Source of the DNA: a virus
Reading direction: 5' to 3' (one strand)
Length of the DNA: 57,285 nucleotides
IMG/VR virus record: IMGVR_UViG_3300046057_000055
Location: 1-57,285 of that record
Part shown: piece after piece, positions 632 to 25,736 of the stretch
How positions within the stretch are numbered: position 1 is the first letter of the stretch
How the letters are laid out: every line of letters starts with the position of its first letter
Made by a program: the position numbers and the translations under genes
Notes under the pieces: generated by a model
Seen by the model: only the letters and a program-made list of their open reading frames with translations
Database searches by the model: none
What the model was told of the DNA's origin: nothing

Positions 632-697
632 TCCGAGCGGATCGGATGGCTTGCGTCTGACGCGGATTTATCACCTATCAGTGAGAGCACTCCCGGT

Positions 698-758
698 AGT
701 GACAGGCAGGACAGCAATCCCATCATTACTGGGAGTGACGTCACTGCCGGCAATCCCA
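698..758. promoter_or_regulatory. parA-proximal operator-like repeat cluster
   Basis: Perfect 12-bp palindrome agtgacgtcact at 734..745. Half-site agtgac at 698..703. Direct repeat gcaatccca at 714..722 and 750..758. The cluster ends 4 nt before the parA ATG. Confidence 0.45.
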
Positions 759-761
759 ATC

Positions 762-1577
762 ATGACAGCAAAACGCGTTACGACGGCGATCTTCAAGGGC
801 GGTACCGGGAAGACAGCAACTGCGACGAACCTGACGGCCGCGCTCGCCGACCAGGGCGAGGCCGTCCTCGCGGTCGACCTCGACCACCGCGGCGGGCTAA
901 CGAAAGGCCTCGGCCTCGAGGACGCCTACGACGCCGACCACCACATCGGTCAATTCCTCCTCCAAGATGAAGCCGTCGACGGGATGGATCCGACGTCGGT
1001 CATCCGCGACCGCGGGGCGTTCGACGTGATCCCGGCGAACCGCCGGATGGACGATCTCTCCGACGATCTCAACAACGACCGGGCGTGGTTCCTCCGGCTC
1101 GAAGAGTTCATCGAGGGCGTCGAGGACGGCTACGACTGGGTCGTGCTGGACTCGCCGCCGGAACTCAACCGCGTGAGCGACTCGGCGATCATCGCTGCGA
1201 AGAACGTCCTCGTGCCGATGGCGCCCGCCGGCGAGGCGCTCGACGGCTTCGGCGAGCTCATGGAGAACCAAGTCATCCCGATCCGGCAGGACCTCGACGA
1301 CGACGTCTCGATCGCCGGGATCTTCGTGAACATCGCGCGGGACAACAACGAGAAGGAATTCGTCGTCGACGAGCTGCGGCCGACGTTCGACGACGAGCTC
1401 ATCATGCGGACCGACGACGCCGGCGACGACGAAGTGCTGGAGCTGCGCTATCGGGTCGCGATCCCGCGCTCCTGGCGCCACGGCGAGACGCTGTTCGAGT
1501 TCGCTCCTGAGAACGCGATGTGCGACCGCTATCGCGAGCTCGCCGCAGCGCTCGACGAGCGGGTCGAGACGGAGTGA
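762..1577 (+). CDS. parA: ParA/Soj-family partition ATPase (271 aa)
   Basis: Deviant Walker A in FKGGTGKTATATNL and a Walker B-like VVLDSPPE. ATG 762 is preferred over the TTG-initiated N-terminal extension in the ORF track (651). Confidence 0.9.
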   Translation: MTAKRVTTAIFKGGTGKTATATNLTAALADQGEAVLAVDLDHRGGLTKGLGLEDAYDADHHIGQFLLQDEAVDGMDPTSVIRDRGAFDVIPANRRMDDLSDDLNNDRAWFLRLEEFIEGVEDGYDWVVLDSPPELNRVSDSAIIAAKNVLVPMAPAGEALDGFGELMENQVIPIRQDLDDDVSIAGIFVNIARDNNEKEFVVDELRPTFDDELIMRTDDAGDDEVLELRYRVAIPRSWRHGETLFEFAPENAMCDRYRELAAALDERVETE

Positions 1578-1582
1578 TCACG

Positions 1583-2095
1583 ATGACCGACGACGATCCC
1601 CGCGACCGGTTCAGCGGCCTCGACGAGCTGAAAGACGAGTACGAGGGCGCGGATCAGGACGGCACTGACGGCGAGGACGGTAGTGACAGCACCGAGAGTG
1701 CGGACGGGACAGACAGCACGGACAGTAATGACGGCAATGATGTCTCTGACGAGAACGATACCATGACCGACGCCGCCAGCGTAGCCAGTAATGACGGGAC
1801 TGACAGCACCGACAGTAATGAGAGTACGGACGGGACTGCCGGGACGGACGGCAATGACGGCGTGAAGGCCAGCCGCGAGAACGTCCAGGCGTACATCCCG
1901 GCCGACGAGAAGGAGCAACTGGAGGCGACGTTCCGACAAATCAAGGCGCTGTGCAACCTCGCTGATCGCGACGAGCCGCTGAAGAACGACTTCTACGCTG
2001 CCGCGTTCCGCCACGGCCACCAGGACGTCGAAGCGATCGCGTCGTACCTGGACCTCAGGGACGTCTACGACGAGTACGGCGAGATGGTCAGCTGA
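1583..2095 (+). CDS. Acidic D/T/S-repeat protein (170 aa), second gene of the partition operon and candidate ParA partner
   Basis: ATG lies 5 nt after the parA stop. Repeated DGTDSTDSN motifs. Conserved-looking C-terminal helical part (IPADEKEQLEATFRQIKAL). Confidence 0.65.
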   Translation: MTDDDPRDRFSGLDELKDEYEGADQDGTDGEDGSDSTESADGTDSTDSNDGNDVSDENDTMTDAASVASNDGTDSTDSNESTDGTAGTDGNDGVKASRENVQAYIPADEKEQLEATFRQIKALCNLADRDEPLKNDFYAAAFRHGHQDVEAIASYLDLRDVYDEYGEMVS

Positions 2096-2097
2096 CG

Positions 2098-2487
2098 ATG
2101 GCGGAGGACTACCGAAAAGTCTGTCTCGCGACGAAGGGGCGAGAATGCGAGATCTGCGGCGCGACGAAGAATATCGTGGTCCATCACGTCGACGGCGATC
2201 GCTCGAACAACCACATCGACAATCCGGTCCCGATGTGTAAACTCTGTCACAAAGCCGTCCACTGGGGCGATGAAGGATACGAACAATGGCACGAGCAGCT
2301 CGTCGGTAGCGCCGACGGCCAGGAGGACGATGTCGAGCGCGAGCAGCTGACCCAGCGGATGCCCGAGGACCTCGTCAAGGACGTCGACGAGATTGCCGAT
2401 CACTTGGGGATGAGTCGGAACGCGATGATCAACATGATGTGCCGCCGGAGCATCGGCGAGATGAAGGAAGAACTCGGGCTGGGATGA
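2098..2487 (+). CDS. HNH endonuclease fused to a C-terminal ribbon-helix-helix-like domain (129 aa)
   Basis: HNH motif CEICG...VHHVDGDRSNNHIDN...CKLCHKAVH. C-terminal CopG-like segment MPEDLVKDVDEIADHLGMSRNAMINMM. Confidence 0.8.
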   Translation: MAEDYRKVCLATKGRECEICGATKNIVVHHVDGDRSNNHIDNPVPMCKLCHKAVHWGDEGYEQWHEQLVGSADGQEDDVEREQLTQRMPEDLVKDVDEIADHLGMSRNAMINMMCRRSIGEMKEELGLG

Positions 2488-5578: not shown

Positions 5579-5866
5579 ATGGCACCCACCGACGATGAAG
5601 TCGACGTCGAAGCCAACTATCGCCGCGTCGACGGCGACTACGTGATCCGCGTGAAAATCATGCGCGTTCCCGAATCGGAGAAATTCCCCGAGGGCGTCAA
5701 GTACCGGCTTCACTTCGGGACGATCGACGGCGAGACGCTCGTTCGCTACGACAACTCCCACGGCGTCCACGAACGGCACGAGGGCGACACGGTCGAACAC
5801 ATCGAGTTTCCCGGCGTCGAAGCACTCGTCGAGCGCTTCGAGGCAGATATCGACGATCGGCTGTAA
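5579..5866 (+). CDS. DUF6516/TumE-like putative toxin (95 aa)
   Basis: Motif KYRLHFGTIDGETLVRYDNSHGVHERH recalled from the haloarchaeal DUF6516 family. Paired with the downstream wHTH gene. Confidence 0.6.
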   Translation: MAPTDDEVDVEANYRRVDGDYVIRVKIMRVPESEKFPEGVKYRLHFGTIDGETLVRYDNSHGVHERHEGDTVEHIEFPGVEALVERFEADIDDRL

Positions 5867-5899
5867 GCGGGTGCCAACCAAACCGAGGTGCCACACCAC

Positions 5900-6295
5900 A
5901 TGAGCGACACTCTCCACATCCAGATCGAGACGACCGACGAGTTCTTCGAGCAGGTCAAGGAGGACGCCGCAGCGATCGACGACGGTGCCGACGTCGACGT
6001 CGACGTCCTGAGCGTCCCCGACCTCGCAACGCTGAGCCGCGTCCTGAGCAAGACGAACCTCGAACTGATCCAAACGGTGGCCGAGTACGAACCAGACAGT
6101 ATGCGCGAGACCGCCCGGCTCGTCGAGCGCGACATCAAGAACGTCAGTGAGGATCTGAACTTCCTCGCCGAGATCGGCGTCGTCGAGATCGAGACGGACG
6201 GACGGGCGAAGCGCCCGGTTGTCCCCTACGATGATCTGGAAGTCGACATTCCTGTTCGCGAGAGCGGCGAGAACAACAGCTCTCTGGTCGCATAG
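5900..6295 (+). CDS. HVO_A0114-family wHTH DNA-binding protein, putative antitoxin or regulator (131 aa)
   Basis: TNLELIQTVAEYEPDSMRETARLVERDIKNVSEDLNFLAEIGVVEIETDGRAKRPVVPYD matches the family pattern from memory. ATG 5900 is preferred over GTG 5888. Confidence 0.6.
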   Translation: MSDTLHIQIETTDEFFEQVKEDAAAIDDGADVDVDVLSVPDLATLSRVLSKTNLELIQTVAEYEPDSMRETARLVERDIKNVSEDLNFLAEIGVVEIETDGRAKRPVVPYDDLEVDIPVRESGENNSSLVA

Positions 6296-8466: not shown

Positions 8467-11229
8467 TCACACCCGCCGCGAGATCGACGAGAACCGCTCG
8501 TCGATCTCGCGGATGACGTCCTCGACCGGCCGCCGAGACCCACCAGTCGTGACGATCTCCGCCGGCCCAGCGTCGATCTGCTGAGTCTGGACCGCCGTGT
8601 CGATCGGTAGCCCGTCGACGACCAGCGCGTCCGTGACCGGCGGGAGATCAACGTCGCTCGGCCACGTCGCCTCGACCTCGTGATGCGGCTCCAGCCCCGT
8701 CTCGACGATCCGCAGCGCCGCCTGCCCGCACGCCCGGTCGGTCGTCAGCCCCGTGATGTCCCGGACCTCCGTGTTCGCGTCGGCGGGATCGACGCCGTCG
8801 GCGACGAACTCGCCCCGAGTCTGGTGCTCATAGTCGACGCGGTAGGCCGCCCCGTCGACGAGGTCGCCGCCGGCCAGCGCCGTGATCGTGCCGTCGCGGT
8901 GGGAGATCTCGTAGTCTGCTCCGCGGTCGAACGTCTCCTGGGTGTCCGGGTCATAGACGTCGACCGATCCCTTCAGGAGTCGTTCGTGCTGGAGTGAGAC
9001 CGCCGTCCCATGCTCGGCGGTGATCTGCTCGCGGCGGACGGACTGGTTGCTCCCGTAGACGATTGCCCGCTCGATCGGGTCCCGTGTCGTCGTGACGTTG
9101 AAGTCCGCGAGCGATGCGTCGACGGTCGTGGTCCGCTGCTCGCGCTCGGCCCACTCGAGACGGCCGCCGCTGTCATCCATCTCGAACGCGAAGACGCTGT
9201 CGCCCAGCTGCTCGGCCAGTTCGCGGAGGACGTCGACGACCGTCGCGTCGAACTGCCTGTCGAGCACCAGCGGCATATCGTCCAGTTGTGCTGTGAGCGT
9301 CAGCGAGTCCACCGACTGGCCGTTGTAGCCGTACCGTGGCGTCCGGCCCTGCGGGGTCTGGCCGATCGGCCAGCGCGAGAGCGTCGCCTCGGCCTGGATC
9401 TCGCCAGTCCTCGACGCCCAGTCCGCCGAGACGGTCTCGGTGTTCGACGCCGTGACCAGCGCGTCGTCGCCGTCGTTGGTGATGCCGACCGCCTGCTGGC
9501 CGTCGACGCTGTCGAACGACGTCGTGAGGTCGCCACCGATCACGCTCAACACAGTGTTGGAGACGTCGAAGCGGATCGTCTCGATTGGATAGTGTTCGGG
9601 CCCGTCGAGCGCGTTTCGCGACGTCGACGACACCCAGGTCGGCTCCTCGTCCAAGGTGATGTCGTAGCGATTGTCTGCGAGCGCGACGTGGTCGATCACC
9701 GTCGGGTCGCTTGCAGACTGCGTGATCTCGACGCGGATCGTGTGCTCGCCCGCCGCGAGGTCGCCGTACGTCCAGCCGTTCGAGACAAAGCTCTCGCCGT
9801 CGTCGCCGTAGTCGCGCCAGCTGAGCCCGAGACGACCGAACGAGTCTGAATAGTTGATCGTGGACAGGAGGTTGCCGTCGAGATAGACCCTGGTTTCGGG
9901 CGTGGCACTGCCAGGGTTCTCGGCACGGATCCAGATGCCGACCTGACTTTCTGGGATCTCGTAGCCGGTCGTGAACGTCCACTCCGCGACCTGGCCACTG
10001 GTGTCGAGCCACCGCGCGGCGCCGTACTCGTCAGTGTTCCCGTCGCCGGAGTAGGCCATGTCCTCGCTGAAGGTCCCGTCAGCAACCTCGTCCCCATCGT
10101 AGCCGTCTGCTGTGAAACACGACTGCAACAGTGACAAGCCGTTGGCGACGTCGACCGGACGCGTGCTTAGGTCCGTCGTCTGTGTGATCCCTGCCCAGTC
10201 GGCGTCCGTCGTGACGTCCTGGACGACGTCCTCGGTCTCCTCGACGCTTGGCGTGTCGACGCTGGTCGCGTAGCACGTTTCGCTGGCGACCAGCTCTTCG
10301 GCGACCTCGTGGACGGGGCGCGAGTCGTACTCGGCCTCGACGCGCTCTCGGAGCTGCTCGCCGCCGCGGGCGACCAGCACCGTCCGACCGGGCTGCTGCT
10401 CGACGTCCAGAAGGACCTCGGCCGGCTGGCGCTCGCCGTCGTGCCAGACGCGCACCGCAGCCTTCTCGAACGCATCGGCCTGCCACTTCGTCGACTTTGT
10501 GACTGGGATGCGAACGCGCGGCAGGCCATTGACCTTCGGGACGATCTGCGCTTCGTCGAGGACGCTCGGCCGATGGGTGGAGCCGTCGGCCGCGTCGATC
10601 TCGACGTACCAGCCCGATGCGGGGATCCGCGACGTCGGCTTGCCCGTCGCGTCCGCGGTCGCGCTGATCTCTTCGGTGTCGGCGTAGACCCACTCCGTGT
10701 GCTCGCGGACGTAATAGCGATACTCTCGCTGCGGCAGCACACCGTCGTCGGTGACCGTCGTGTCGTCGGCCCCGGTCGTGCCGATCTGCTCGAAGCTCTC
10801 GACACTGCCGTCGAATACCCGCGCCCGGAAGATCTTGCTCCCGGAGTCATTGTCAGCGTACTCTGCCCAGTCCAGCGAGACCGACGTCGCCGACGTCGAC
10901 GCGGTGAGACTGTCGGGGGCCGGAAACTTCGTGATGTCCTCGGCCTCGAGCCACGAGCCGGTCTTGTAGGCCGTCTGCGTTCGGAGCCGGACCGAATACT
11001 GCTCGCCGTCCTGGAGCCCGGTGATCTGGTGCGAGGTCGTCCCTACGCCGACCGTCGCCTCGTCCTGGTAGTCTGGGTGGTTGCCATCGGGATCGTCGTC
11101 GCGCAACTCCAGGTGGAACTCGCCGTTGTTGAGGACGTCGTCCCACGTCGCGGTGAGTTCGTCCTCGACGCTGGCGTCCAGCTGGAGGCCGCTCGCAGCG
11201 GGCAGATCGGTAGTGAACTGAGCCGGCAT
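8467..11229 (-). CDS. Tail fiber / receptor-binding protein with N-terminal FN3 repeats (920 aa)
   Basis: FN3-like segments (LTATWDD...GEQYSVRLRT; VSLDWAE...YRYYVRE). It is the last gene of the tail module, and its start overlaps the upstream stop (TAATG). Confidence 0.7.
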   Translation of the reverse strand: MPAQFTTDLPAASGLQLDASVEDELTATWDDVLNNGEFHLELRDDDPDGNHPDYQDEATVGVGTTSHQITGLQDGEQYSVRLRTQTAYKTGSWLEAEDITKFPAPDSLTASTSATSVSLDWAEYADNDSGSKIFRARVFDGSVESFEQIGTTGADDTTVTDDGVLPQREYRYYVREHTEWVYADTEEISATADATGKPTSRIPASGWYVEIDAADGSTHRPSVLDEAQIVPKVNGLPRVRIPVTKSTKWQADAFEKAAVRVWHDGERQPAEVLLDVEQQPGRTVLVARGGEQLRERVEAEYDSRPVHEVAEELVASETCYATSVDTPSVEETEDVVQDVTTDADWAGITQTTDLSTRPVDVANGLSLLQSCFTADGYDGDEVADGTFSEDMAYSGDGNTDEYGAARWLDTSGQVAEWTFTTGYEIPESQVGIWIRAENPGSATPETRVYLDGNLLSTINYSDSFGRLGLSWRDYGDDGESFVSNGWTYGDLAAGEHTIRVEITQSASDPTVIDHVALADNRYDITLDEEPTWVSSTSRNALDGPEHYPIETIRFDVSNTVLSVIGGDLTTSFDSVDGQQAVGITNDGDDALVTASNTETVSADWASRTGEIQAEATLSRWPIGQTPQGRTPRYGYNGQSVDSLTLTAQLDDMPLVLDRQFDATVVDVLRELAEQLGDSVFAFEMDDSGGRLEWAEREQRTTTVDASLADFNVTTTRDPIERAIVYGSNQSVRREQITAEHGTAVSLQHERLLKGSVDVYDPDTQETFDRGADYEISHRDGTITALAGGDLVDGAAYRVDYEHQTRGEFVADGVDPADANTEVRDITGLTTDRACGQAALRIVETGLEPHHEVEATWPSDVDLPPVTDALVVDGLPIDTAVQTQQIDAGPAEIVTTGGSRRPVEDVIREIDERFSSISRRV

Positions 11230-13697
11230 TATTGGTCCTCCCTCGCAGTGGTGTGTTCAGTGTATGTCTCAACGGTGGTGCCGTAGAGCATCCCATCGAG
11301 TAGTTCGGTCGTCTGGGTAGACTGCGTCTCCCCCTCGCCGACCGGTGCGACGTCGCTCCCGTCCTGCGAGTAGCTGCCGCTGTCATCCTCGCGGAGCAGC
11401 AGCCGGTAGCCGTCGGCGTTGTTCGAGGGGTCAGTCCACGAGATCGTGGCGTGACGGCCGTCGACGGACTCAACCGCCAGCTCAACCGGCGGGAGGTTCG
11501 TGATGGCCGTTTTCGTAGACGTGTCGTCAAAGAAGTACGTGCCGCCAGTCCCACGACGGTATTGCTGGATGGTGGTCCGAGCAAACGCCTCATATTGCTC
11601 GCCGTCCAGTAACCCATCTCGAGTCTCGCTTGTCTGGTCTGCAGGGAGATCGGCGTGATGGTCCCATGTATCGCTGCCCGTCGGCCTGAACTTCGTCTCC
11701 TGCTTCGAGGGGAAGGCAGCGTTGTTCGTCCACGAGAGTGTTATCTCGCGATCCGTCGAGGCGTCGAGCGCAAGGTCTGATGGGGCGGCAGGCCGGGTGT
11801 GCTCGTGTAGGATGTCGCTGACGACGATACGGTCGTATCCTCGGTGGTCCGCGCCGCCCATGTTGTTCCCCGTGATTCTCACCCGGGCATCCGACGACAT
11901 GTATGAGCCGGGGACGAGAGCGTGGGCCTCAAACCAGTCCGACTTGTTGTACGCCGATGCCTCGTAGTCGTTGTTGTCGGGAATGTTGTTGATCTGGTGT
12001 ATCGTCTGCCACGTCGATCCGTCGTACCATTCGATGCGAATGTCGTCGCCGTGGTTCGTGTCCATCGACCCGATAGCCATCGCGCAGCGGACGATCACAC
12101 CTGATTCGCCGCTCATATCGCCGAGGTCCTTCATCACTGTACTGTTGCCGTCCAGCCTGAGGCAGTACGATCCGCTGTCGGATCCGTCGATTGCCGTATC
12201 TTCGATCCCGCCAGTTACTACCCCGGACTCGGACGTGTCGAGGTACGTGTTGTCCCATTTCGACAGATCCCCGGACTCGAAATCGTCCTCGAAGTAGACA
12301 TTCCCCCGGTTGCCGTAGTCGGCGTACGCGTATTCCGAGACCCGGTATTCGTCGCCACGGTTCTCGGTCCGCTCGATGCGGAACTGGTAACGAGCGCCCT
12401 CCTCGAAATACCCTGAGTCGACAAACTCGTAGCTCTGCCCGGTCTCGTAGGTGACCGCGATCCGTTCTCCCTGCGACGGGTAGTGGGTGCTAATCGTCGT
12501 CCAACCCCCATACCCGCCCCCGTCATCCTTGCGCGCTTCGACGTGGTTGTAGTTCCCGATGTCGGACTTCCGCGTCCACGTCACATCGAAGGTGTCTGAA
12601 CCGGGACGCGATACAGCCGGGTTGTGCGGCGGGATCGGCGTCGTATAGACCGTGTCGCTCGTCGTCCAACTGGAGGTATCACCCTGCGAGTTAACCCCGC
12701 GGACCCGGAATTGGAACTCCGAGTCGATACCGACCTGCTCGTTATAGGGGGCATCGGAACTCGGGTAAACCGACGCCGTCCCGTTCGAGACGGACATATC
12801 GTAGCTCGATGGTTCGACCCACGAGGCCCCATCGCGCGACATCTGCAGGTCGTAGTCCTCGTTGTTCGAGTCGTGGTCCCAGTCAAGATCGATCTGGTAG
12901 TCGTCGACGACCGTCGCGTCGACGTTGCTTGGCGCGACCGGCGCATAGTAGTACTCGATCTCGACCTGTCCGTCGTTCGTCGCCCCAGCGCCCCCGCCGA
13001 CCGTCGTCGAGGCGGCCGTGACGCCACCGGTGTAGCTCGATCCACCGCCGCCAGCGCCAGCGCCGCCGCTGGTGTCCAGACCGGCACCGCCACCGCCGCC
13101 GTAGTATCCCCCACCGCCACCGCCGCCACCGCTCCATCCGTTTTTGGGATCGCCGCCGGCACCACCGGAGCCGGACGACCCATCCTGACCATCGTTCCCG
13201 CCGCCGGACCCGCCGGCCCCTCCACCAGATTGCGTCCCGCCGTGCCCTGCATCGCCGACGAACGACTCTGCGCCGTCCTGACCGGTGTCGCCGCCACCAT
13301 CACCGCCGGGGTTGTACGACCCACTGCCAGAGGAGTGGCCGCCGAGGCCGCCGCCACCACCGGCGACGATGACGCGGTCGGCGAGCGCGGTGCTGTTGTA
13401 TCGGACGTCGCTGGCCCCGCCTCCGGACCCACCGCCGCTGCCGTTTGACCCGTTATCTCCGCCGGATCCACCGCCGTTGAACCCGCCATTGGTCTTGAAC
13501 CCGCCACCGCCGCCGACGTACACTTCGAGCGTGTCGCTCCCGGAGACGGACAGATCGCCTTCGGTGTACCCACCAGCACCGCCTGCATCCGTCGTGTAGC
13601 CGCCACCGGCCCCCCAGCAGCGGATAGTGACTTTCTCGACGCCGTCCGGAACAGTCCAACTGTAACTCCCTGCGCTGGACCAGCTTTCAGTCGGCAT
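11229..13697 (-). CDS. Tail fiber protein with an N-terminal glycine-rich domain and multiple FN3 repeats (822 aa)
   Basis: About 250 aa of GGxGG-rich sequence ending VEIEYYY, then at least 4 FN3-like units (IDLDWDH, FDVTWTR, ITLSWTN, ATISWTD). Confidence 0.7.
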   Translation of the reverse strand: MPTESWSSAGSYSWTVPDGVEKVTIRCWGAGGGYTTDAGGAGGYTEGDLSVSGSDTLEVYVGGGGGFKTNGGFNGGGSGGDNGSNGSGGGSGGGASDVRYNSTALADRVIVAGGGGGLGGHSSGSGSYNPGGDGGGDTGQDGAESFVGDAGHGGTQSGGGAGGSGGGNDGQDGSSGSGGAGGDPKNGWSGGGGGGGGYYGGGGGAGLDTSGGAGAGGGGSSYTGGVTAASTTVGGGAGATNDGQVEIEYYYAPVAPSNVDATVVDDYQIDLDWDHDSNNEDYDLQMSRDGASWVEPSSYDMSVSNGTASVYPSSDAPYNEQVGIDSEFQFRVRGVNSQGDTSSWTTSDTVYTTPIPPHNPAVSRPGSDTFDVTWTRKSDIGNYNHVEARKDDGGGYGGWTTISTHYPSQGERIAVTYETGQSYEFVDSGYFEEGARYQFRIERTENRGDEYRVSEYAYADYGNRGNVYFEDDFESGDLSKWDNTYLDTSESGVVTGGIEDTAIDGSDSGSYCLRLDGNSTVMKDLGDMSGESGVIVRCAMAIGSMDTNHGDDIRIEWYDGSTWQTIHQINNIPDNNDYEASAYNKSDWFEAHALVPGSYMSSDARVRITGNNMGGADHRGYDRIVVSDILHEHTRPAAPSDLALDASTDREITLSWTNNAAFPSKQETKFRPTGSDTWDHHADLPADQTSETRDGLLDGEQYEAFARTTIQQYRRGTGGTYFFDDTSTKTAITNLPPVELAVESVDGRHATISWTDPSNNADGYRLLLREDDSGSYSQDGSDVAPVGEGETQSTQTTELLDGMLYGTTVETYTEHTTAREDQ

Positions 13698-14846
13698 CTA
13701 TCGACGCACCTCCTGTCGGTCGATGAGGTCCTTCTGCCCGGCCGTCGCGTAGACCGTCGACGCAGCGACCGGGTCAAGCCAGTCGACGATCCCCGACGGG
13801 ATCGGCGCGGACTCGCCATCGGGGATCGCGAACAGCACCGAGTCGTCACCGCGCCCGAGGATCGCGTCGAGCGCGTAGAGACTGGAGCCATCGCTAAACG
13901 TCAGCTGCGCGTCGACGCGGATCATCCCGACGTGCGTGAGGTCGACGTCGAGCAGCGACCACGACGAGTTGTTCGTCAGCCCGACCGCGCTCCAGGACGA
14001 CGTCGACGACTCCCAAGTCTCGGCCGTGATCGTGCCAGCGGCCTCGTCGAGCTCAACGCGGAGGACGCCAGAGTCCAGGACGACCGGGTCGGCGAAGTCG
14101 TGCTGGGGGCGGGCAACGACCTGCCACTGCCGGTTGTCGTTGCTGTCGGTTTTCGAGTCGTTGCCGCGCGTATCGTAGACGCGGACGCCGACGCGGATGT
14201 CGTCGGCGTACGGGATCTCGTAGATCAGCGTCGGGTTGTCCGCACTGACCGCGTTGGATCCGTCGGACAGATCGTAGACGTCGACGTCGCCGAACTCAGC
14301 TGTCCGCGTCGACGCCTCGGTCGCAGGCGCCCGTGCCTGCGTCTCCGGGTTAAACCACTGGGCCTTGCTCACCAGGGACGGCAGCGTGACTCTCGCGGTC
14401 GTGTCGTTGCCGAACTGCTCGTCGTGCTCGACTTGGCTCTGTTCGGTGCGCAGCGCTCGCCACTGCGAGTTGCGCGTCCCGGCGTGCCGGATCGTCCCGC
14501 TGATCTGCTGGACACGCTTCTCTGCTGTGTTTGCCCGCGAGAAGCTACCCTCCTCAAGGACGTAGTAGCCGTCCTCCGGACTGCCGCCATCGGGGGCGCA
14601 GTAGACGACTTTGCTGATCCCCGGCGCGCCGAAAAGTTCCTCGATCTCCGAAGCGACCATCTCCGCGTGGGTGCCTCTGATGGAGGCTTCGAGCCGCCGC
14701 TGGCCGGGGTCGAGGGACAGCGCCTCGACGGCCGAGCCGCCGCTGTTGAGGATGCCCTGGGCGGCGATGTTCGTCGTCGACGTCGCCTCCGAGCTACGCT
14801 GGCTGTCGGCCGAGACACGGACGTGGTGGAGTCGCTTGTCGGGCAT
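13698..14846 (-). CDS. Tail tip / baseplate hub-like protein (382 aa)
   Basis: Second gene after the tape measure candidate. Its size fits the N-terminal module of Tal/gp27-like proteins. No motif was recognised. Confidence 0.45.
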   Translation of the reverse strand: MPDKRLHHVRVSADSQRSSEATSTTNIAAQGILNSGGSAVEALSLDPGQRRLEASIRGTHAEMVASEIEELFGAPGISKVVYCAPDGGSPEDGYYVLEEGSFSRANTAEKRVQQISGTIRHAGTRNSQWRALRTEQSQVEHDEQFGNDTTARVTLPSLVSKAQWFNPETQARAPATEASTRTAEFGDVDVYDLSDGSNAVSADNPTLIYEIPYADDIRVGVRVYDTRGNDSKTDSNDNRQWQVVARPQHDFADPVVLDSGVLRVELDEAAGTITAETWESSTSSWSAVGLTNNSSWSLLDVDLTHVGMIRVDAQLTFSDGSSLYALDAILGRGDDSVLFAIPDGESAPIPSGIVDWLDPVAASTVYATAGQKDLIDRQEVRR

Positions 14847-14847
14847 G

Positions 14848-15456
14848 TTATCGGTCCTCCTGGCCGCCGGTGTCGAGCGCCTGGTCCAGCGAGATGGTCT
14901 CGATCCACGTCACCGAGCCGTCGAAGACGCTGGACTCCTCGGGCGAGTTGAAAACGATGTTTGGGTTCTCGGGGATGACCTGCAGCGGCCCGTACCGCGT
15001 GCTGCTGTCGCTACTGTACTCCCCGAACTCCAGCGTCGCCGGGTTTTTGCTGTCGATCGTCGCCGTCTGCAGGTAGCGGTCGAACACAGCCATCTGCGCG
15101 TGGACGTCCTCGCCGGTCGCGTCTGCCGGGGTCCCGCCGGCGCCAGTGTTGCCCCACTGGTGGGGCGATCCGGTGTAGCCCTGGAAGTCGATCGAGATCG
15201 CGTGGATGCCGCCACCGATATCAAGCGAGAGTTCCTGCCGGAGTCCCTCGCCGTCGATTTCCTGGTCGGTGAGGTCGCCGTACCACTCGAGGATCGTTGA
15301 CGCGATCACCGATGTCGTCCCCTCTGACTGGAAAAACTCCTGCGTCCGCGTTTCGATCTCGACGACGACGTCTGAGGGGAACACGAACGTCCCGGTGACG
15401 GTTTCGCCGGCGATCTGTGCGTTCGGGATCGTCACCTGCGGCTTCGTCCACGTCAT
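14848..15456 (-). CDS. Distal tail protein-like (202 aa)
   Basis: Immediately downstream of the tape measure candidate, with start overlapping its stop (ATGA). Confidence 0.45.
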   Translation of the reverse strand: MTWTKPQVTIPNAQIAGETVTGTFVFPSDVVVEIETRTQEFFQSEGTTSVIASTILEWYGDLTDQEIDGEGLRQELSLDIGGGIHAISIDFQGYTGSPHQWGNTGAGGTPADATGEDVHAQMAVFDRYLQTATIDSKNPATLEFGEYSSDSSTRYGPLQVIPENPNIVFNSPEESSVFDGSVTWIETISLDQALDTGGQEDR

Positions 15457-16727
15457 CTCTGGAGCCCCCGCTCGAGTTTCTCGATGCGGCGCTTCAGCTG
15501 TCGGAGGTCGCTATCGATCTTCCGTTCGAGGCTGGATAGGTCGACGTTGTACGTCGGCTTGTGTTCGACCTTCGTGTCCCCGCCCGTCCGGTCCCGGGCC
15601 TGGTTCGAGTCGGTTTGCGACCCGCCGCCGCCCGAGGAGTCAGACTCAGATCCAGAGTCAGATTGCCAGCTGTACTCGGCGTCGGTGTCGTACTCGGGCG
15701 TGTGGACCTTCGGCTGGTCTGGTACGGTATTCGCGTACGCGTCGTCGATATCGCTCCCGGTTAGGCCAGGCGTCGTCGACACACCATCGAGGTTGCCTGC
15801 TCTCGGACGATCTGTGATCCCGAAAACGTCCGGATGTTCACGGTTAGGGTTACCCGGCGTAACGTCACTGGCCGTGTCCTCGCCCTTGTCGGGGCGGTCG
15901 ACATGGCCGACAATCCGATCAGCGATGTCGATTTTCCCGTCGACGAGTGCATCGATTGCCACAGTCCCGACTAATGCCGTAAGGGCGACACCCCCGACTA
16001 TCGCAGCCAGTGGCGCACCTGCAACCAGAGCAGCGATCGAACTTCCCGCAACAAGCGATGAGATGGACGTCCCAGTAACGAACGATGCGATAGATGCCCC
16101 ACCAGCGATGAACGCCCCCAGGCCAACACCTGTCTCGATGAGTTCCGGGAGCGGCACAGGCCCAGCGATGAGGTCGCCGAGGCTGTTGAGCGGGTTGATG
16201 ATGTCCGACAGTGTGGCCTTACCCTCGATGAGGTTCTTGGCTATCAAGCCCCCGGTGATGAGTGTCGACACCGCAAGGCCCGACTTGACGAGAACTCCAG
16301 CCGAGACCTTAGTGACCAACGAACCGAGGCTCACCGGTGTAATCAGTGACGTGAGACTGGTTCCCGCCATCATACTCGCGACGCTGCCGAGGCCGAGGAG
16401 GCTTGACACGCCCCCGCCCCCACCTCCGCCGTTTGCCTCTCCTCGTTCAGTTGCCTCAAGAAGCCCCGAAAGGAGCGTATTCCGCTCCTTATCGAGTCCG
16501 ACCGTGTCCTCAAGCGCTCCCGATACGCCGGAGAGCTTCGTTCCGATGGCTGTTGTCGCCGTGGTTGCCACACCGCTCCCGGATTGACCGCCAACGCCGG
16601 CTGTCGTTGAGCTATCTACCTCTTGAGTGATGCTGATGTCGCTGAGTTCCCGCTCAAGTTGTCGGGTGGCACTTTTCACCGACGAGTCCGAGAAGGACAG
16701 CTCTGCTTCAGTACTAAACTCTGTCAT
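15453..16727 (-). CDS. Tape measure protein candidate (424 aa)
   Basis: Follows the G/GT chaperone pair. Long G/A/S/L/V-rich hydrophobic core, poly-G run and C-terminal coiled coil (LRQLKRRIEKLERGLQR). Confidence 0.6.
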   Translation of the reverse strand: MTEFSTEAELSFSDSSVKSATRQLERELSDISITQEVDSSTTAGVGGQSGSGVATTATTAIGTKLSGVSGALEDTVGLDKERNTLLSGLLEATERGEANGGGGGGGVSSLLGLGSVASMMAGTSLTSLITPVSLGSLVTKVSAGVLVKSGLAVSTLITGGLIAKNLIEGKATLSDIINPLNSLGDLIAGPVPLPELIETGVGLGAFIAGGASIASFVTGTSISSLVAGSSIAALVAGAPLAAIVGGVALTALVGTVAIDALVDGKIDIADRIVGHVDRPDKGEDTASDVTPGNPNREHPDVFGITDRPRAGNLDGVSTTPGLTGSDIDDAYANTVPDQPKVHTPEYDTDAEYSWQSDSGSESDSSGGGGSQTDSNQARDRTGGDTKVEHKPTYNVDLSSLERKIDSDLRQLKRRIEKLERGLQR

Positions 16728-16782
16728 GATGATCCCTCTTGCGCTGTGTCAAGAACTGAAAACCGCCGCTGTTCCGGCCGCG

Positions 16783-17262
16783 CTATTCGTCGACGTCCGT
16801 TCGGTCTGTTGTGTCTGGGGCTGCTCTTTCCGCGAAATCCTCGGTAATCGAATCGTTCAGCGCGATAACACTGACGATCACTAGAGCCAGCCCACCGAGC
16901 AGCGTCACGTAGAGACCTGACCCTGCTGTCACGGTCGACTCTGCGAGCTGCCGCTGTGCTTCTGGCCCCTCGTAGCCGAAGATGAACGGGTCCACGATGT
17001 AGACAGCTGCTAACGTCGAAACGAGGACACCGACGCCGAATACGAGACCCTGTATTTTCTCACGCCACTCCGCGAACGCGAGTGCGAAAATCACTCCGAA
17101 TCCAAGCGGCGCCGTGTACAGGCCGTCGTGGGAAAACCCCGCCTCGGTCGCCGTCGTCCCCAGAACTGAAACTTCAAACCAGGGTAGAAACGCACCGAAG
17201 ATGATAGCAGCAGCGCCGACCAGGCCAACCTGCTGCTCTGTCGAGAGCTCATCAAGTGACAT
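16783..17262 (-). CDS. Four-helix membrane protein inserted between chaperone and tape measure genes (159 aa), moron-like
   Basis: Four hydrophobic segments. Has its own AT-rich upstream region (17263..17308). Locally lower GC. Confidence 0.65.
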   Translation of the reverse strand: MSLDELSTEQQVGLVGAAAIIFGAFLPWFEVSVLGTTATEAGFSHDGLYTAPLGFGVIFALAFAEWREKIQGLVFGVGVLVSTLAAVYIVDPFIFGYEGPEAQRQLAESTVTAGSGLYVTLLGGLALVIVSVIALNDSITEDFAERAAPDTTDRTDVDE

Positions 17263-17308
17263 ACTAACAGATCGGTTTGGGGATATGTTAAAACTGCTGC
17301 CAAGGTGG

Positions 17309-17970
17309 CTATTTATTTCCTCGCCGAGTGAACAGTTCGCTGGCGGCGAGTTCGATCAACTCCAAGTCGCGGATGGAACATTCACGAGCCTCTCGCGGCG
17401 AGATACCGCAAACGCCGGCGATACCGATGAGCAGGTCGGCCCGAGCACCTACTGAGAGCTCTCGCTGATCTCCTCGTAGAGCGCTCTGTAGTTTGTCTCT
17501 CCGTTTCCCCCCACGCCAGTGAGTGCGTCGATCCTGTCCTGCGCCCACTTGAGGAACGCAACCGGGAGGTCCGAGATCGTTGCGACGCGCTCGTCCTCGC
17601 CCATGCTGTCGTCGACGTACGGCGCATCGACAGTGCCCTTGGCGACCTGGTAGACGCGGACAGCACCAGCGCCACCACCGTGCTCGCCGACGTCGTCCTC
17701 GAGGGCGCCGAATTCGCCGCCGGTCAGCCCGCCGAACGTAACGGCGTCGACGTCGGCGTCCCACATGGGAGCGTACTCGGCGTCGAACGCCTCGTCGCGA
17801 GCCCAGCGGACGCCCTGCAGATGCGTCTCCACTTGGGCCCGTTCGGTCTCGAAGCGCTGTCGGATGTCGCTGTTGTCGACGTCGTTGAGGACGTCGTTGA
17901 TCTCGTCGAGCTTGTCCTCGAGACGCTGCTCCTCCTCGTCGAAGTTGTAGGTTTCCGTGCGTAGAGGCAT
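17309..17970 (-). CDS. GT-like -1 frameshift fusion product (about 220 aa)
   Basis: The -1 frame is open from the slip site to TAG at 17309..17311. It encodes ...ADLLIGIAGVCGISPREARECSIRDLELIELAASELFTRRGNK. I checked the frame arithmetic by hand. Confidence 0.55.
17449..17970 (-). CDS. Tail assembly chaperone G-like (173 aa)
   Basis: Acidic protein directly after the major tail protein gene. Contains the slippery heptamer near its 3' end. Confidence 0.65.
   Translation of the reverse strand: MPLRTETYNFDEEEQRLEDKLDEINDVLNDVDNSDIRQRFETERAQVETHLQGVRWARDEAFDAEYAPMWDADVDAVTFGGLTGGEFGALEDDVGEHGGGAGAVRVYQVAKGTVDAPYVDDSMGEDERVATISDLPVAFLKWAQDRIDALTGVGGNGETNYRALYEEISESSQ
17503..17509 (-). other. Slippery heptamer G_GGA_AAC (programmed -1 ribosomal frameshift site)
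   Basis: Reads gtg ggg gga aac in the zero frame. Fits the X_XXY_YYZ pattern and resembles the lambda G/GT site G_GGA_AAG. Confidence 0.55.
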
Positions 17971-17975
17971 CGTGA

Positions 17976-18902
17976 TCAGGCGATTGTGACGCCGCCAGTG
18001 ACGTTGAACTGGGTCGTGTCGGTCGTGTCTGTGTCTCCGTCCGTGATCAGGTCGTTCCAGCCGTGCGTGGTCGGCTTGAGCTTCGGCAGTTGATACGCCG
18101 ATACGGACGCCCCGTCGACGGCGACGTCGAACGAGCCAGACACGCTGTCCATCCGGGCCGCGGTCGTCGTCGCACCGGTGCCGCCGTAGGCGAGTTCGGT
18201 TCTCGAAGGGCCGGAGAAGATCGCGTCGGCAGTGAGCTCCGTTTCGGGCTTCGCGAGGACTGCGTCGACGGCGATGTGATCGGCGCCGCGCTGGAGCCGG
18301 CTGATGTTGCTGATCGACAGCTCGGCCGACTGGAGTTTCGTAACCTCGGCGCCGTCGACGTCGAGCGTGACGCCGTGGAACATCGCCGACGTGCCGTCGG
18401 TGACGCTGTTGATCGACGACGGTGTGATCGACGTGCCGAGTTCCTCGTCGGCGTAGGCCATCGTCAAGCTGTACGAGATCGGCTCGCCCTGATCGTAGCT
18501 GACCGTGTAGTCAAGCGGGATGCAGCCCTTGAGCTCGCGCTCGGCCGTTCCATCGAGGTAGTCGATCCCCGCGTAGACGCGCCCGGATGCCGCTCGTCCA
18601 CGTGTGAATCCGGTGCCGCCGTCGTTGAAGACGAGGTCCTCGACGTCGCCGTGGACGTCCGAGGAGATCACGGCCTCAACGGCGAACGCGCCCTCGAGGT
18701 TGCCCGCGACCGACTCGACGTACTCGGCCTGGTCGGCCTCGCTCAGGTTCTGCAGCGCCCGGTCGAGTTCGAGCTCGGTCACCGTGGGGTCCCGGCCGAA
18801 CTTCCAGTAGTCCGGGTTGCTGTCGGAGTCCGCGTCGACCAGCGAGCCCATGAACGTCTGTTCTTTCCCGAACGCGAGAGACGCCGCTCCCGCGCCCGTC
18901 AT
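17976..18902 (-). CDS. Major tail protein candidate (308 aa)
   Basis: Lies between the neck genes and the chaperone pair. There is no sheath-sized gene, so the morphology is siphovirus-like. Confidence 0.55.
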   Translation of the reverse strand: MTGAGAASLAFGKEQTFMGSLVDADSDSNPDYWKFGRDPTVTELELDRALQNLSEADQAEYVESVAGNLEGAFAVEAVISSDVHGDVEDLVFNDGGTGFTRGRAASGRVYAGIDYLDGTAERELKGCIPLDYTVSYDQGEPISYSLTMAYADEELGTSITPSSINSVTDGTSAMFHGVTLDVDGAEVTKLQSAELSISNISRLQRGADHIAVDAVLAKPETELTADAIFSGPSRTELAYGGTGATTTAARMDSVSGSFDVAVDGASVSAYQLPKLKPTTHGWNDLITDGDTDTTDTTQFNVTGGVTIA

Positions 18903-18950
18903 GCTGTGCCTCCGTCAGTGTTATCGTATCGAATCATGGTTGTCTCACTC

Positions 18951-19466
18951 TCAGGGTAGGGATGCGTAGCCGATCAGGCGGACGTCCCAGTCGCGTCGGA
19001 AGTAGTCCATGTTCTCCTCGCTCAGATCAGTCTCGTTTTCGACGACCAGGGTGTGGTACGCGACCGAGCCAATGTCGTTGCCCCCGACGTCGTCGACAGT
19101 TGGGTAGGACCGCTCGACATCGAGCGCGTGCTGGGCGTAGCGTACCAGCCGTTCAAAGTCGGTCGTAGAGTCGACATGCCCATACTCAGCAGCAGTGAGC
19201 GCTTCCAACCGACACGAGATCGTCGTCTCGACGCGCTTGTCGTACTCCGCCCCGACCGGTTCGGACATCCTATCGGCGAGTGATGCGCCGATCGCTGACC
19301 ACTGCTTGAGCTCAAGTGACCGCTTGCGCTGGCCCGTCTCGAGGATCTCCGGTTCGTCGCGGTTGATCCGTGCCAACACCGGATCCCCGTCGCCGTCCGC
19401 CGGCCAGCTGTCTGGCCAGTTCACCTTGACGGTCTCAAGTACCCACGTCACTTCGTCCTGAACCAT
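18951..19466 (-). CDS. Neck / tail-terminator-like protein (171 aa)
   Basis: Called on position in the head-tail joining block only. Confidence 0.4.
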   Translation of the reverse strand: MVQDEVTWVLETVKVNWPDSWPADGDGDPVLARINRDEPEILETGQRKRSLELKQWSAIGASLADRMSEPVGAEYDKRVETTISCRLEALTAAEYGHVDSTTDFERLVRYAQHALDVERSYPTVDDVGGNDIGSVAYHTLVVENETDLSEENMDYFRRDWDVRLIGYASLP

Positions 19467-19469
19467 CGC

Positions 19470-19931
19470 TTAGCTCACCTCCTGTCGAAGCCAGTTGATA
19501 CCGGCCTGGACGAACCGCGACTCCGGGAGTCCGGAGACATCGACCTCCGGGAGGAACGCCGTCCCATCAGGGAACATCTCCTTCAGGTGCGGATACTCAT
19601 CGCCGTCGAATCGGAAGACAAGGACGGGATCTCCTTCGATGGTGTGGTCGCTGGTCCCGTTGTTGTAGAACGCGGCCACCTCGTGCTCCCAGCGCCAGGA
19701 TACCTCCAGCTCGGTGTCTGACCGAGATATTTCGACGCCGGCGAACGAGTCGATGATCGGCTCGGCGTCGTAGTCGTTTCGGGAGGCGTAGCTGCGGAGC
19801 GTTCCGTGCGAGACACGCATCGCTTGGTAGACGAGGGATCGAGTGTTGCCGACCAGCTCGGCTTCGGCCTCGTCAAGCACTGGCGACGGGCCCTCAATCG
19901 AGAACGATACGCGGGCGTCAGTTTCCGCCAT
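19470..19931 (-). CDS. Head-tail joining protein candidate (153 aa)
   Basis: ATG 19931 (MAETDARV...) is preferred over the R-rich ORF-track extension. Called on position only. Confidence 0.4.
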   Translation of the reverse strand: MAETDARVSFSIEGPSPVLDEAEAELVGNTRSLVYQAMRVSHGTLRSYASRNDYDAEPIIDSFAGVEISRSDTELEVSWRWEHEVAAFYNNGTSDHTIEGDPVLVFRFDGDEYPHLKEMFPDGTAFLPEVDVSGLPESRFVQAGINWLRQEVS

Positions 19932-20175
19932 CGTTGTCCTCCGTGTCGCTGCCCTGCAGATCCTGCGCTGTCTCGAGGGCGTCGTCCATCGTTCGCTTGC
20001 CAAACACGCGGTAGGCGCCGCCGATCACGATCGCCAGCACGACGAGTTGCCAGAGCGCCCCCAGCGACTCGCCTGTCCACTCGCCGTGCGCCCACAGCCC
20101 GACGACCGCGAGGATCACGATGGCGCCCACGACGGACGCCAGCGCGCGGTAGGGGCGGGCCGGTTTGATCGGCAT
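19918..20175 (-). CDS. Small two-helix membrane protein (85 aa)
   Basis: ALASVVGAIVILAVVGLW and LWQLVVLAIVIGGAY hydrophobic segments. GGAGGTG lies upstream. GTG 20178 is an alternative start. Confidence 0.5.
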   Translation of the reverse strand: MPIKPARPYRALASVVGAIVILAVVGLWAHGEWTGESLGALWQLVVLAIVIGGAYRVFGKRTMDDALETAQDLQGSDTEDNDGGN

Positions 20176-21050
20176 CACGGCACCTCCGCGTCGGGCTCAA
20201 GGAGCTTCCGAGCACGCTCTTTCATCTCGTCGGCCTTCGACTCGATGTTGTAGATGGTCGCGTTCTCGGGGATCTCGATGCTCGCCTCTTCGACGAACTC
20301 GGCGCCGGCGAAGTTCGCGACCGCCCTGCGGACGGTCCGCGGGATGCCCTCGTGGCCGTAGTCCCAGTCCGGGTACACAGCCTTCGACAGGCTGGCGATC
20401 TCGTCATCAAGCGAGTGGACGTTGATGTAGAGTTCGCTGATGCCGTCGTTGTTGACGCGGCCCCAGTAGTCCTCGCCCCGGTGCGTAGTGCCGACGCCGC
20501 CCTCGTAGTCGTCGCTGGCCACCCAGTCGTCGAACCCGCCGTCGGCGTTGATGACGTTGAGTTCGTTGATCGCGTCGACATCCTTCCGATCGAGGCGGAT
20601 CCGCGTGTACGCCGGGATGCTGTCGTCGGCCGGCGGTTCGAGCGCCTCGGACGAGCCAACCGAGATGCGGATCTCCTGTTTGAGCTCCCGCCGCTCGTGG
20701 CGCCGGCGTTCGTACGCCGGCCCGGACTCGAGTAGCGCGTCGCTGTTCTGCCGACGGTGGTGGCGATCGCGTTCGCTGGCGCCGTGAACCATCGCCCCGT
20801 GACGAGGGAGATCCTCTTCGTCGTGTCGCGTCTTCGGACTCGTCGGGATGTCGATTGCGTCGGCCTCGTCCAGGATGTCAGCGCTGTTGGGGGCGTACCA
20901 GTGGCGCTTATAGGTCCGCTCGAGCCACTGACTCTGGGACGTGACCGCATCGATCGCGATCTGTTTGTCCTGCTCGATGTCGCCCGGGAGCGATGCTGAT
21001 CGCAACGCTCGCCGGAGATCCTCGAGCGTGCAGTAGCCTACTGGATCCAT
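20175..21050 (-). CDS. Head-tail connector/adaptor candidate (291 aa)
   Basis: N-terminus YCTLEDLRRALRS resembles gp6-type connector N-termini. Position downstream of the capsid genes. Confidence 0.4.
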   Translation of the reverse strand: MDPVGYCTLEDLRRALRSASLPGDIEQDKQIAIDAVTSQSQWLERTYKRHWYAPNSADILDEADAIDIPTSPKTRHDEEDLPRHGAMVHGASERDRHHRRQNSDALLESGPAYERRRHERRELKQEIRISVGSSEALEPPADDSIPAYTRIRLDRKDVDAINELNVINADGGFDDWVASDDYEGGVGTTHRGEDYWGRVNNDGISELYINVHSLDDEIASLSKAVYPDWDYGHEGIPRTVRRAVANFAGAEFVEEASIEIPENATIYNIESKADEMKERARKLLEPDAEVP

Positions 21051-21056
21051 GGAGAG

Positions 21057-21368
21057 TTACCCTCCGCCGGCCATCAGCGTGATCGTTGCCTGGTCACCGG
21101 CGGTGCCGGTCCCGCTCGAACACCGAACGCGCACCTCGACGTCGCCCGTCTCGTAGACATCGTCGTAGTCAGCGCTACCGGTCAGCTCATCGTCGACGTT
21201 CTGGATCCACTCGCCGCCGCGTCGACGGGCGTCCCACTGGTAGTCCGCAGCGGCGTCGCCCCGGATGTGCAGCGAGGCGATCGATGCACCGAGCATCCGG
21301 ATCGAGGCGGATCCGCCGGCAGTCTCGATGTCGATCGTCTTCTCGGCGACCTGTGGCGATTCAGGCAT
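21057..21368 (-). CDS. Hypothetical structural-module protein (103 aa)
   Basis: ORF track. Tightly packed in the head module. Confidence 0.5.
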   Translation of the reverse strand: MPESPQVAEKTIDIETAGGSASIRMLGASIASLHIRGDAAADYQWDARRRGGEWIQNVDDELTGSADYDDVYETGDVEVRVRCSSGTGTAGDQATITLMAGGG

Positions 21369-21371
21369 GCG

Positions 21372-21569
21372 TTAGCCCTCCCTCTTGAGCGTGTACGCCG
21401 TGCCCTTCGGGATGAACACTTCAAGGCGCGTGTTGTCCGGGCCGTCGGTGACAGTGATTCGCTCACCATTCTCGGTGCTCTCTGTTGTGACCGCCTCGGG
21501 ATCCGTCTCGAACGTCTCCGTTCTGGCAGGATTTGTGTCGTAGATACAGACGGTGAACTCCTGAACCAT
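21372..21569 (-). CDS. Hypothetical structural-module protein (65 aa)
   Basis: ORF track. Acidic. 3-nt intergenic gaps on both sides. Confidence 0.5.
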   Translation of the reverse strand: MVQEFTVCIYDTNPARTETFETDPEAVTTESTENGERITVTDGPDNTRLEVFIPKGTAYTLKREG

Positions 21570-21572
21570 CGG

Positions 21573-22061: not shown

Positions 22062-22063
22062 GA

Positions 22064-22441: not shown

Positions 22442-22623
22442 CAGTTGCCGACCTCCTCACCGTCGATGTAGATGTCGACTGGTTCCTCTTCCGGGATGCG
22501 GTACTCGGTTCCCTGTGCCTGGATCACGACCGCGTCGTCGGCGTCGTGGCTGTGATAGACATCGGCGAGCGGCTCGTCGTCGTGGTCATCGGGTGTGCCC
22601 CGATAGACCGTTGTGCGCGTCAT
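22441..22623 (-). CDS. Hypothetical small acidic protein (60 aa)
   Basis: ORF track. Its stop overlaps the next start. Confidence 0.45.
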   Translation of the reverse strand: MTRTTVYRGTPDDHDDEPLADVYHSHDADDAVVIQAQGTEYRIPEEEPVDIYIDGEEVGN

Positions 22624-22637
22624 GTCAGATCACCACG

Positions 22638-23690: not shown

Positions 23691-23702
23691 CTGTTGACCT
23701 CG

Positions 23703-25616: not shown

Positions 25617-25619
25617 GGG

Positions 25620-25733: not shown

Positions 25734-25736
25734 CTG

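Follow-up and report, generated by a model that had tools for sequence, protein, structure and literature searches.

The IMG/VR record IMGVR_UViG_3300046057_000055 (57,285 bp, analysed here over its full length and hereafter called the window) probably represents a temperate haloarchaeal virus related to Halorubrum virus BJ1, Graaviviridae-like and of siphovirus type, whose lysogenic form is a non-integrated, low-copy circular plasmid. We favour this reading because no recombinase was recognised in the window, its genes include a plasmid gene set, its relatives exist as plasmids, a census of related elements divides in the same way, and the haloarchaeal viruses phiH1 and phiCh1 provide a precedent. 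An earlier note on this DNA had proposed an episomal plasmid-prophage lifestyle, a proposal that now draws its support mainly from the plasmid-state relatives and the 15-element census. From these observations we infer the plasmid state of the window virus itself.

The record has a completeness rating of 100%, and its first 55 bases are exactly repeated at its end. This direct terminal repeat of 55 bp indicates a circular assembly of 57,230 bp. The G+C content is about 65% and almost every predicted protein is acidic. High G+C and an acidic proteome are typical of haloarchaea and haloarchaeal viruses, and the host is probably Natrinema or a close relative. ARAGORN found no tRNA in the window, and an Rfam scan of the window returned no family at threshold.

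ParA-bearing relatives of the window are plasmid-sized replicons or contigs

A search of plasmid records with the capsid protein identified eight haloarchaeal plasmids. Five of the eight encode capsid proteins of 58-81% identity, and all five are 38-58 kb long. Among them, plasmid unnamed5 of Natrinema sp. DC36 (NZ_CP084477.1) is a circular replicon of 57,942 bp from a complete genome, with a capsid protein 81% identical to that of the window. Its head and tail genes are syntenic with ours, and the record starts with its own ParA gene and a small acidic partner gene. Halobacterium salinarum pKBTZ02_38 (NZ_CP148058.1) and Haloarcula sp. CBA1115 unnamed5 (NZ_CP010534.1) carry ParA, a partner and a Cdc6 or Cdc6-like ATPase, and no integrase is annotated on either of these two plasmids. 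All three plasmids resemble the window in joining a BJ1-like head-tail module to ParA followed by a small acidic partner gene and to a Cdc6 or RepH-like gene, and PadR is annotated on two of them (DC36 and pKBTZ02_38). They differ from the window in the type of ParA and partner, for which DC36 gave no match at an E value of 1e-5 and pKBTZ02_38 and CBA1115 reached up to 32% identity. The DC36 plasmid also differs by its terminase and by a tyrosine recombinase of 224 amino acids. None of the three plasmid records is described as a virus.

The best match among species representatives is a contig of 55,966 bp from the cultured Natrinema salsiterrestre, which encodes a capsid protein 93% identical to that of the window. 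Its ends overlap by 125 bp, indicating a circular molecule; it has its own ParA, no hit to PF00589 and a coverage of 85.7. Taken together, the relatives with capsid proteins of 59-93% identity are circular plasmids or contigs of 38-58 kb in cultured Natrinema, Halobacterium and Haloarcula, with ParA present in each one examined.

We sampled 401 Halobacteria genomes, found a BJ1-like capsid gene in 10 of them and compared 15 elements in all, scoring the positions of tyrosine recombinases and ParA and reading the contig sizes. The window and all of its ParA-bearing relatives (7/7) lie on replicons or contigs of 38-58 kb. Conversely, the contigs of all seven elements that have no ParA in their vicinity measure from 97 kb to 3.6 Mb; three of these elements are located deep inside chromosomes, and in five of the seven a tyrosine recombinase occurs at a distance of 9-43 kb from the capsid gene. 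The presence of ParA thus separates plasmid-sized replicons from large-contig copies without exception across the 15 elements, a strong pattern.

No integrase was recognised in the window

The earlier note had reported no tyrosine or serine recombinase and had set the detection of an integrase beforehand as a result that would count against an episomal lifestyle. Of the hidden Markov model (HMM) searches that it proposed, we ran those with Pfam and PHROGs and found no integrase. Six-frame searches of the whole window with PF00589 and PF00239 returned no candidate even at E values up to 10, whereas hits were obtained in the control genomes. Pfam scans of about 78 open reading frames (ORFs), together with PHROGs scans of the larger ORFs without assigned function, revealed no recombinase or transposase. 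Protelomerases, DDE transposases and SSV-type integrases were likewise absent from the ORF-level Pfam scans, and no six-frame search specific to these families was made. No homologue of the 224-amino-acid tyrosine recombinase of the DC36 plasmid was found in the window. PHROGs assigned no protein to an integration family, apart from a weak AAA+ match of Orc1 to a transposition ATPase.

One tRNA-like stretch (35646-35742) was considered as a possible attP. It was not called a tRNA by ARAGORN or Rfam, its folding was no better than that of shuffled sequences (z-score -1.6), and it had no significant match in four candidate host genomes, so that we rejected it as a candidate.

Partition, replication and maintenance genes

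The genes on which the earlier note had built its proposal held up in our searches: a ParA with an acidic partner protein, an Orc1/Cdc6 and a large Rep-like protein are all encoded in the window. The ParA gene (762..1577, plus strand) encodes a partition ATPase of 271 amino acids that matches AAA_31 (E value 2.6e-29; 102.9 bits against a cut-off of 27), CbiA (E value 1.1e-12) and phrog_164, 'ParA-like partition protein' (E value 3.7e-38). The profile match begins at residue 4 or 5, and residues 12-18 read in translation as the deviant Walker A motif KGGTGKT. By these features we class the product as a small, type Ib-like ATPase of the ParA/MinD superfamily that has no N-terminal DNA-binding domain. 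The nearest ParA (86% identity) is encoded on a circular contig of 45.3 kb from Natronoarchaeum philippinense, and the ParA proteins of phiH, phiCh1 and ChaoS9 are about 31% identical.

The partner gene (1583..2095, plus strand, with its ATG start at 1583) encodes a protein of 170 amino acids, labelled DUF8160 by a precomputed PF26492 assignment in a large protein collection. Its nearest homologue (75% identity) is found on the same N. philippinense contig as the nearest ParA. A ParA homologue and a DUF8160 gene share a contig in four cases (57, 45, 4.1 and 3.1 kb), and in a fifth, on a contig of 51 kb, the DUF8160 gene directly adjoins the ParA homologue. Alignment of seven DUF8160 homologues showed an invariant N-terminal peptide, MxDDDPRDRF..K.EY, in which R7, R9 and K17 are invariant, followed by a variable, acidic, low-complexity linker and a conserved C-terminal helical domain. 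In the model of the monomer, residues 107-169 form four helices and no strands, with a predicted local distance difference test score (pLDDT) of about 85. Centromere-binding adaptors share such a layout, and their N-terminal arginines stimulate ParA. By analogy, the DUF8160 partner is presumed to be a centromere-binding adaptor.

A ribbon-helix-helix (RHH) fold, first read from sequence for the C-terminal domain of the partner, was not retained, since the model shows helices without a strand. A common ancestry of the window partner with those of pKBTZ02_38, DC36 and CBA1115 was likewise not supported; the scores were marginal and inflated by low complexity, and only the architecture is shared.

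We then considered the predicted complex of ParA with residues 1-40 of the partner, which scored 0.60, the best control scoring 0.37. On the benchmark, 58 of 80 solved complexes and 2 of 110 mismatched pairs reached the mark for the complex score, and at 0.60 or under it was passed by only 7 of the 80 solved complexes and by both of the passing mismatches. Contact agreement was at least 0% and partner pLDDT at least 50 across the three runs. We count this contact score for the plasmid provirus as weak computational support.

The region upstream of parA (653..761, plus strand) is a candidate promoter and operator and possibly a centromere. It contains a TATA-like TTTATCA, a set of AGTGA/TCACT palindromes including a perfect 12-bp one, AGTGACGTCACT, and two direct repeats of about 38 nt. 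The TATA-like motif and the palindromes are conserved in the N. philippinense element, with which approximately 55 nt ending in GCAATCCCA upstream of parA are identical. At the nucleotide level, the match to this element covers 653-2115 at 83% identity, breaks and resumes at 4900-5018, which delimits a conserved unit consisting of the upstream region, parA and the partner gene.

The N. philippinense contig (G005, IMGVR_UViG_2728369221_000001; loci L015-L017) is a circular contig of 45,294 bp from a cultured strain and represents a tailed virus with a Phage_portal_3 portal. In addition to the same ParA-DUF8160 cassette as the window, it has two tyrosine recombinases 1-4 kb away from the cassette. 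The occurrence of this cassette, at 83% nucleotide identity, in an unrelated tailed virus with a different portal family suggests that the cassette moves between unrelated virus lineages.

The large Rep-like protein (37355..40747, minus strand) is assigned by its profile matches to the RepH family of plasmid replication proteins, with DUF5817 (E value 1e-17) and winged helices, and its role in replication is predicted. The match to phrog_17376, 'replication protein', covers residues 328-1122 (E value 3.8e-48). The protein is 40% identical over 97-99% of its length to proteins of many haloarchaeal plasmids and is matched by RepH of phiH (L segment), phiCh1 and ChaoS9 with E values of about 1e-21. 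The Orc1/Cdc6 AAA+ protein (49090..50151, minus strand), a predicted origin-binding initiator or regulator, matches TIGR02928 (E value 2.9e-41), AAA_16 and Cdc6_lid, and the Cdc6 of pKBTZ02_38 aligns with the window from 50151. A candidate origin or main switch region is found at 53021-53185, within the intergenic region from which the leftward and rightward operons diverge. Nowhere else is the genome as rich in A+T (G+C down to 30%), and the stretch contains the palindrome TAACTAACTATTAGTTAGT and lies near the lowest values of the cumulative GC skew.

Two further groups of genes would fit maintenance as a plasmid. On the plus strand, a TumE toxin gene (5579-5866; E value 4.2e-13, 49.5 bits against a cut-off of 23.4) and a gene for a winged-helix HVO_A0114 protein (5888-6295; E value 1.7e-28, 98.7 bits) form a pair that recurs on Haloferax plasmids. 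Experiments have established the TumE-TumA family as a toxin-antitoxin system that targets translation (PMC10584680), and by its membership of this superfamily 5579..6295 is a candidate toxin-antitoxin addiction module. A PadR-family regulator (47599..48057, minus strand; E value 7.6e-15) is the candidate immunity repressor. It is present at 52-60% identity in all related elements examined, namely the DC36 plasmid, the N. salsiterrestre contig, the N. philippinense contig and pKBTZ02_38.

We propose that the RepH-family initiator, perhaps aided or regulated by the viral Orc1/Cdc6, would recruit the host replisome, and that ParA and the DUF8160 adaptor would segregate the plasmid copies at cell division. 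In such a system, the C-terminal domain of the adaptor would bind DNA, and its conserved arginine-rich N-terminal peptide would stimulate ParA. TumE/TumA may kill or arrest cells that lose the element, and PadR together with small RHH regulators may silence the leftward lytic operon until induction. After induction, the genome would be packaged by the head-tail module through a headful mechanism.

Comparison with known extrachromosomal proviruses

The closest precedents for such a lifestyle are found among contractile-tailed viruses. In the provirus state, phiH1 and phiCh1 are circular plasmids whose replication region contains ParA, RepH and a likely toxin-antitoxin pair (PMC6210493, PMC6471424), and the L segment of phiH replicates alone as a plasmid (PMC6210493; PMC6471424 Table 1). 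Both viruses (Myohalovirus; the phiCh1 provirus is pNMAG03) resemble the window in size (~57-58 kb) and G+C content (~62-65%), in a headful-type head module with a distantly homologous capsid protein (31-33%), in ParA (~31% identity, as given above) and RepH (24-26% over the C-terminal half), and in the possession of a toxin-antitoxin pair and several DNA methyltransferases. However, phiH1 and phiCh1 are myoviruses with two tyrosine recombinases, a tail-fibre invertase and Int2 adjoining parA, and with a coliphage-like repressor. The window, conversely, has a BJ1-type non-contractile tail module, no recombinase that we could find, TumE/TumA in place of a VapC-like toxin-antitoxin pair, and in addition the DUF8160 partner and Orc1/Cdc6, the latter as in ChaoS9, which also carries an Orc1.

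The nearest cultured virus by capsid protein is BJ1 (Halorubrum virus; Graaviviridae, Beejeyvirus), whose head-tail module is syntenic with that of the window. BJ1 is a virus of 42 kb with an integrase and with evidence of integration (PMC2194725, PMC7911831, PMC11705971). Plasmid functions in the window take the place of this lysogeny module. A search of phage records with ParA gave no match for BJ1 or for the related virus HRTV-DL1, the only haloviruses matched being phiH, phiCh1 and ChaoS9.

In bacteria, the P1 and N15 prophages are extrachromosomal tailed viruses with their own initiator, a ParA-type partition system and an addiction module (parABS and phd-doc in P1). P1 combines a large type Ia ParA with ParB and parS and resolves dimers by Cre-lox, and N15 is linear and has a protelomerase. 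They are functional analogues of the window, homology being limited to the ParA superfamily. In contrast, the window encodes a small ParA, an unrelated adaptor and initiators of archaeal type, and no resolution system was found in it, protelomerase families not having been searched specifically. To our knowledge, plasmid-state lysogeny in archaea is documented for only a few viruses, namely phiH1, phiCh1 and the tailless SNJ1.

The earlier note called this lifestyle poorly documented for archaeal siphovirus-like viruses. This stands for the BJ1 siphovirus lineage; among archaeal myoviruses the lifestyle is known from phiH1 and phiCh1 (PMC6471424, PMC6210493). The plasmid provirus as a kind is already known, and what is new is the membership of the BJ1 siphovirus lineage.

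Counter-evidence and alternative explanations

Several observations weigh against a plasmid provirus. The record comes from a metagenome, and circularly permuted virion DNA, as reported for BJ1 (PMC7911831), would be just as likely to give a circular assembly; since headful-packaged genomes assemble as circles too, the circular assembly alone is no proof of an episome. About half of the window ORFs have no assigned function. Tyrosine recombinases are found in the ParA-bearing relatives DC36, the N. philippinense contig, G004:C13 and G207:C8, so that ParA and recombinases are not mutually exclusive, even though these enzymes may, by analogy with phiH and phiCh1, be invertases or resolvases. The census elements are kin to one another and contig size is a mere proxy for the state of the replicon, and the division between them is accordingly no formal probability. 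As to the mechanism, a centromere was not identified, and the region upstream of parA offers only 2-4 short repeats and no clear iteron array. A wide fold search with the C-terminal domain of the adaptor retrieved generic small helical domains (best Z 5.3), and a profile search of PDB sequences with this domain found nothing. Finally, a viral Orc1/Cdc6 is reported to regulate lysogeny in SNJ2 (cited in PMC10544981), and that of the window may likewise be a regulator and not an initiator.

The same observation on circular assemblies from headful packaging in the BJ1 lineage (PMC7911831) would fit a strictly virulent, or at most chronic, virus that uses RepH, Orc1/Cdc6 and ParA for lytic replication or genome positioning and whose circle is permuted virion DNA. 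HRTV-DL1, with a capsid protein 46% identical to that of the window, was isolated and studied as a lysing virus (PMC10544981), and no lysogen or host assembly is known that holds the exact window genome. We nevertheless regard this explanation as unlikely. The same gene set is kept in the form of plasmids in cultured strains, a toxin-antitoxin pair and a conserved PadR make little sense in a purely lytic virus, and the cultured BJ1-group viruses that integrate or lyse gave no match to ParA in the phage-record search.

Still somewhat less probable, in our estimate, is a temperate virus that integrates by means of either an unrecognised recombinase of its own or one encoded by the host, and that needs ParA only for a transient episomal phase. 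The large share of unannotated ORFs leaves room for such an enzyme, and for hundreds of kb around one chromosomal relative (G276, at 2.66 Mb) there is no hit to PF00589. Yet the HMM searches were negative with positive controls, PHROGs offered no integration family beyond the weak Orc1 match, and the candidate site at 35646-35742 was neither a tRNA nor matched in the four candidate host genomes. Moreover, none of the ParA-bearing relatives lies on a large contig, and the G276 copy looks like a remnant, with no detectable terminase.

The G276 copy (G276:C1:2651500-2670800; loci L023-L024) comprises tail, head, portal and ParB-methyltransferase genes. Neither a terminase nor ParA nor a nearby tyrosine recombinase was detectable there, and the copy is possibly a provirus that has become defective or a cluster of structural genes that has been domesticated.

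The head-tail module

A full head-tail and packaging module, as the earlier note had described it, occupies 8467..31552 on the minus strand. It encodes tail fibres with fn3 domains, a tail tube, the capsid protein, an XkdF-type protease-scaffold, a portal (Phage_portal, E value 2.8e-23) and both terminase subunits (Terminase_6C, E value 7.6e-11), and a chaperone gene is also part of the set. The window replicon therefore contains a complete virion morphogenesis and packaging module, which is syntenic with plasmids of Natrinema, Halobacterium and Haloarcula. The capsid protein (gene at 22638-23690, minus strand) is 59.6% identical to that of Halorubrum virus BJ1 over its full length, and the comparison with Graaviviridae covered this protein.

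A plasmid with a captured head-tail module, defective or only occasionally packaged, would explain why the nearest matches to the left arm and to the replication genes are genes of haloarchaeal plasmids and why head, terminase and partition modules have clearly been exchanged between elements. We hold it to be just as improbable as an integrating virus, since the morphogenesis genes form a complete, uninterrupted set and the record is rated a complete virus by IMG/VR. Several elements keep this set at 60-93% identity, which speaks for selection on virion production.

The large terminase subunit (29434-31065) shows a different distribution from its neighbours. The terminases of the DC36 plasmid and the N. 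salsiterrestre contig, which are 91% identical to each other, are not matched by that of the window at an E value of 1e-5, whereas their portal and capsid proteins are 72-93% identical to those of the window. Conversely, pKBTZ02_38, the CBA1115 plasmid and several chromosomal copies encode terminases with 59-65% identity to that of the window. A terminase of foreign type beside a conserved portal and capsid points to a recombination breakpoint between the portal and terminase genes.

Implications for haloarchaeal plasmids and proviruses

If the window is a plasmid provirus, it would, together with the relatives filed as plasmids in databases, extend plasmid-state lysogeny to the BJ1 siphovirus lineage, and ParA in this lineage would predict an episomal state. 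We give an even chance to a broader proposal, in which the lysogeny mode of BJ1-like viruses is swappable between an integrase and a ParA cassette with plasmid initiators, ParA-DUF8160 is an uncharacterised, portable archaeal partition system, and the window is the first recombinase-free siphovirus-type plasmid provirus of archaea. A recent survey of archaeal head-tailed proviruses began from integrases and att sites (PMC11705971), a design by which such elements would be missed. Some haloarchaeal 'plasmids' may accordingly need a new annotation as proviruses. For the construction of stable haloarchaeal vectors, the window offers candidate parts in the compact ParA-DUF8160 cassette, in RepH and in TumE/TumA.

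An insertion next to the cassette and DNA methyltransferases

Downstream of the partner gene, an HNH endonuclease fused to a weak C-terminal RHH is encoded at 2098..2487 on the plus strand (phrog_8048, E value 2.5e-15; RHH_1, E value 0.011), and an Arc-like phrog also matches the RHH part (E value 0.0019). In the N. philippinense element, no such gene separates the partner gene from the homology at 4900-5018, which places the fusion gene outside the conserved partition cassette. The earlier note was right about an RHH-containing protein, in so far as the weak C-terminal RHH is present, but had listed beside ParA and its partner what is an HNH-RHH fusion inside an insertion.

By this alignment, 2098-4900 is assigned as an insertion relative to the N. 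philippinense cassette, with the HNH-RHH gene as its first gene. The insertion further contains a gene for a protein of 347 amino acids, found also on plasmids of Natrinema pallidum (75.6% nucleotide identity) and Natronorubrum daqingense, and a LAGLIDADG-like gene whose product of 489 amino acids has weak LAGLIDADG_2 and HNH_repeat matches. With this content, the 2.8-kb insertion looks like a homing-endonuclease cargo cluster. The RHH part also matches plasmid unnamed3 of Natronosalvus rutilus over 96 nt; this plasmid looks virus-like, but the annotation of its first 50 kb includes no ParA.

Finally, the window encodes three DNA methyltransferases (31565-32815, 42124-43047 and 43168-44046), of the ParB_N-N6/N4 fusion, Dam and Dcm types. 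The three probably serve anti-restriction functions, and the Dcm-type enzyme is 84% identical to the product of a gene on the N. salsiterrestre contig.

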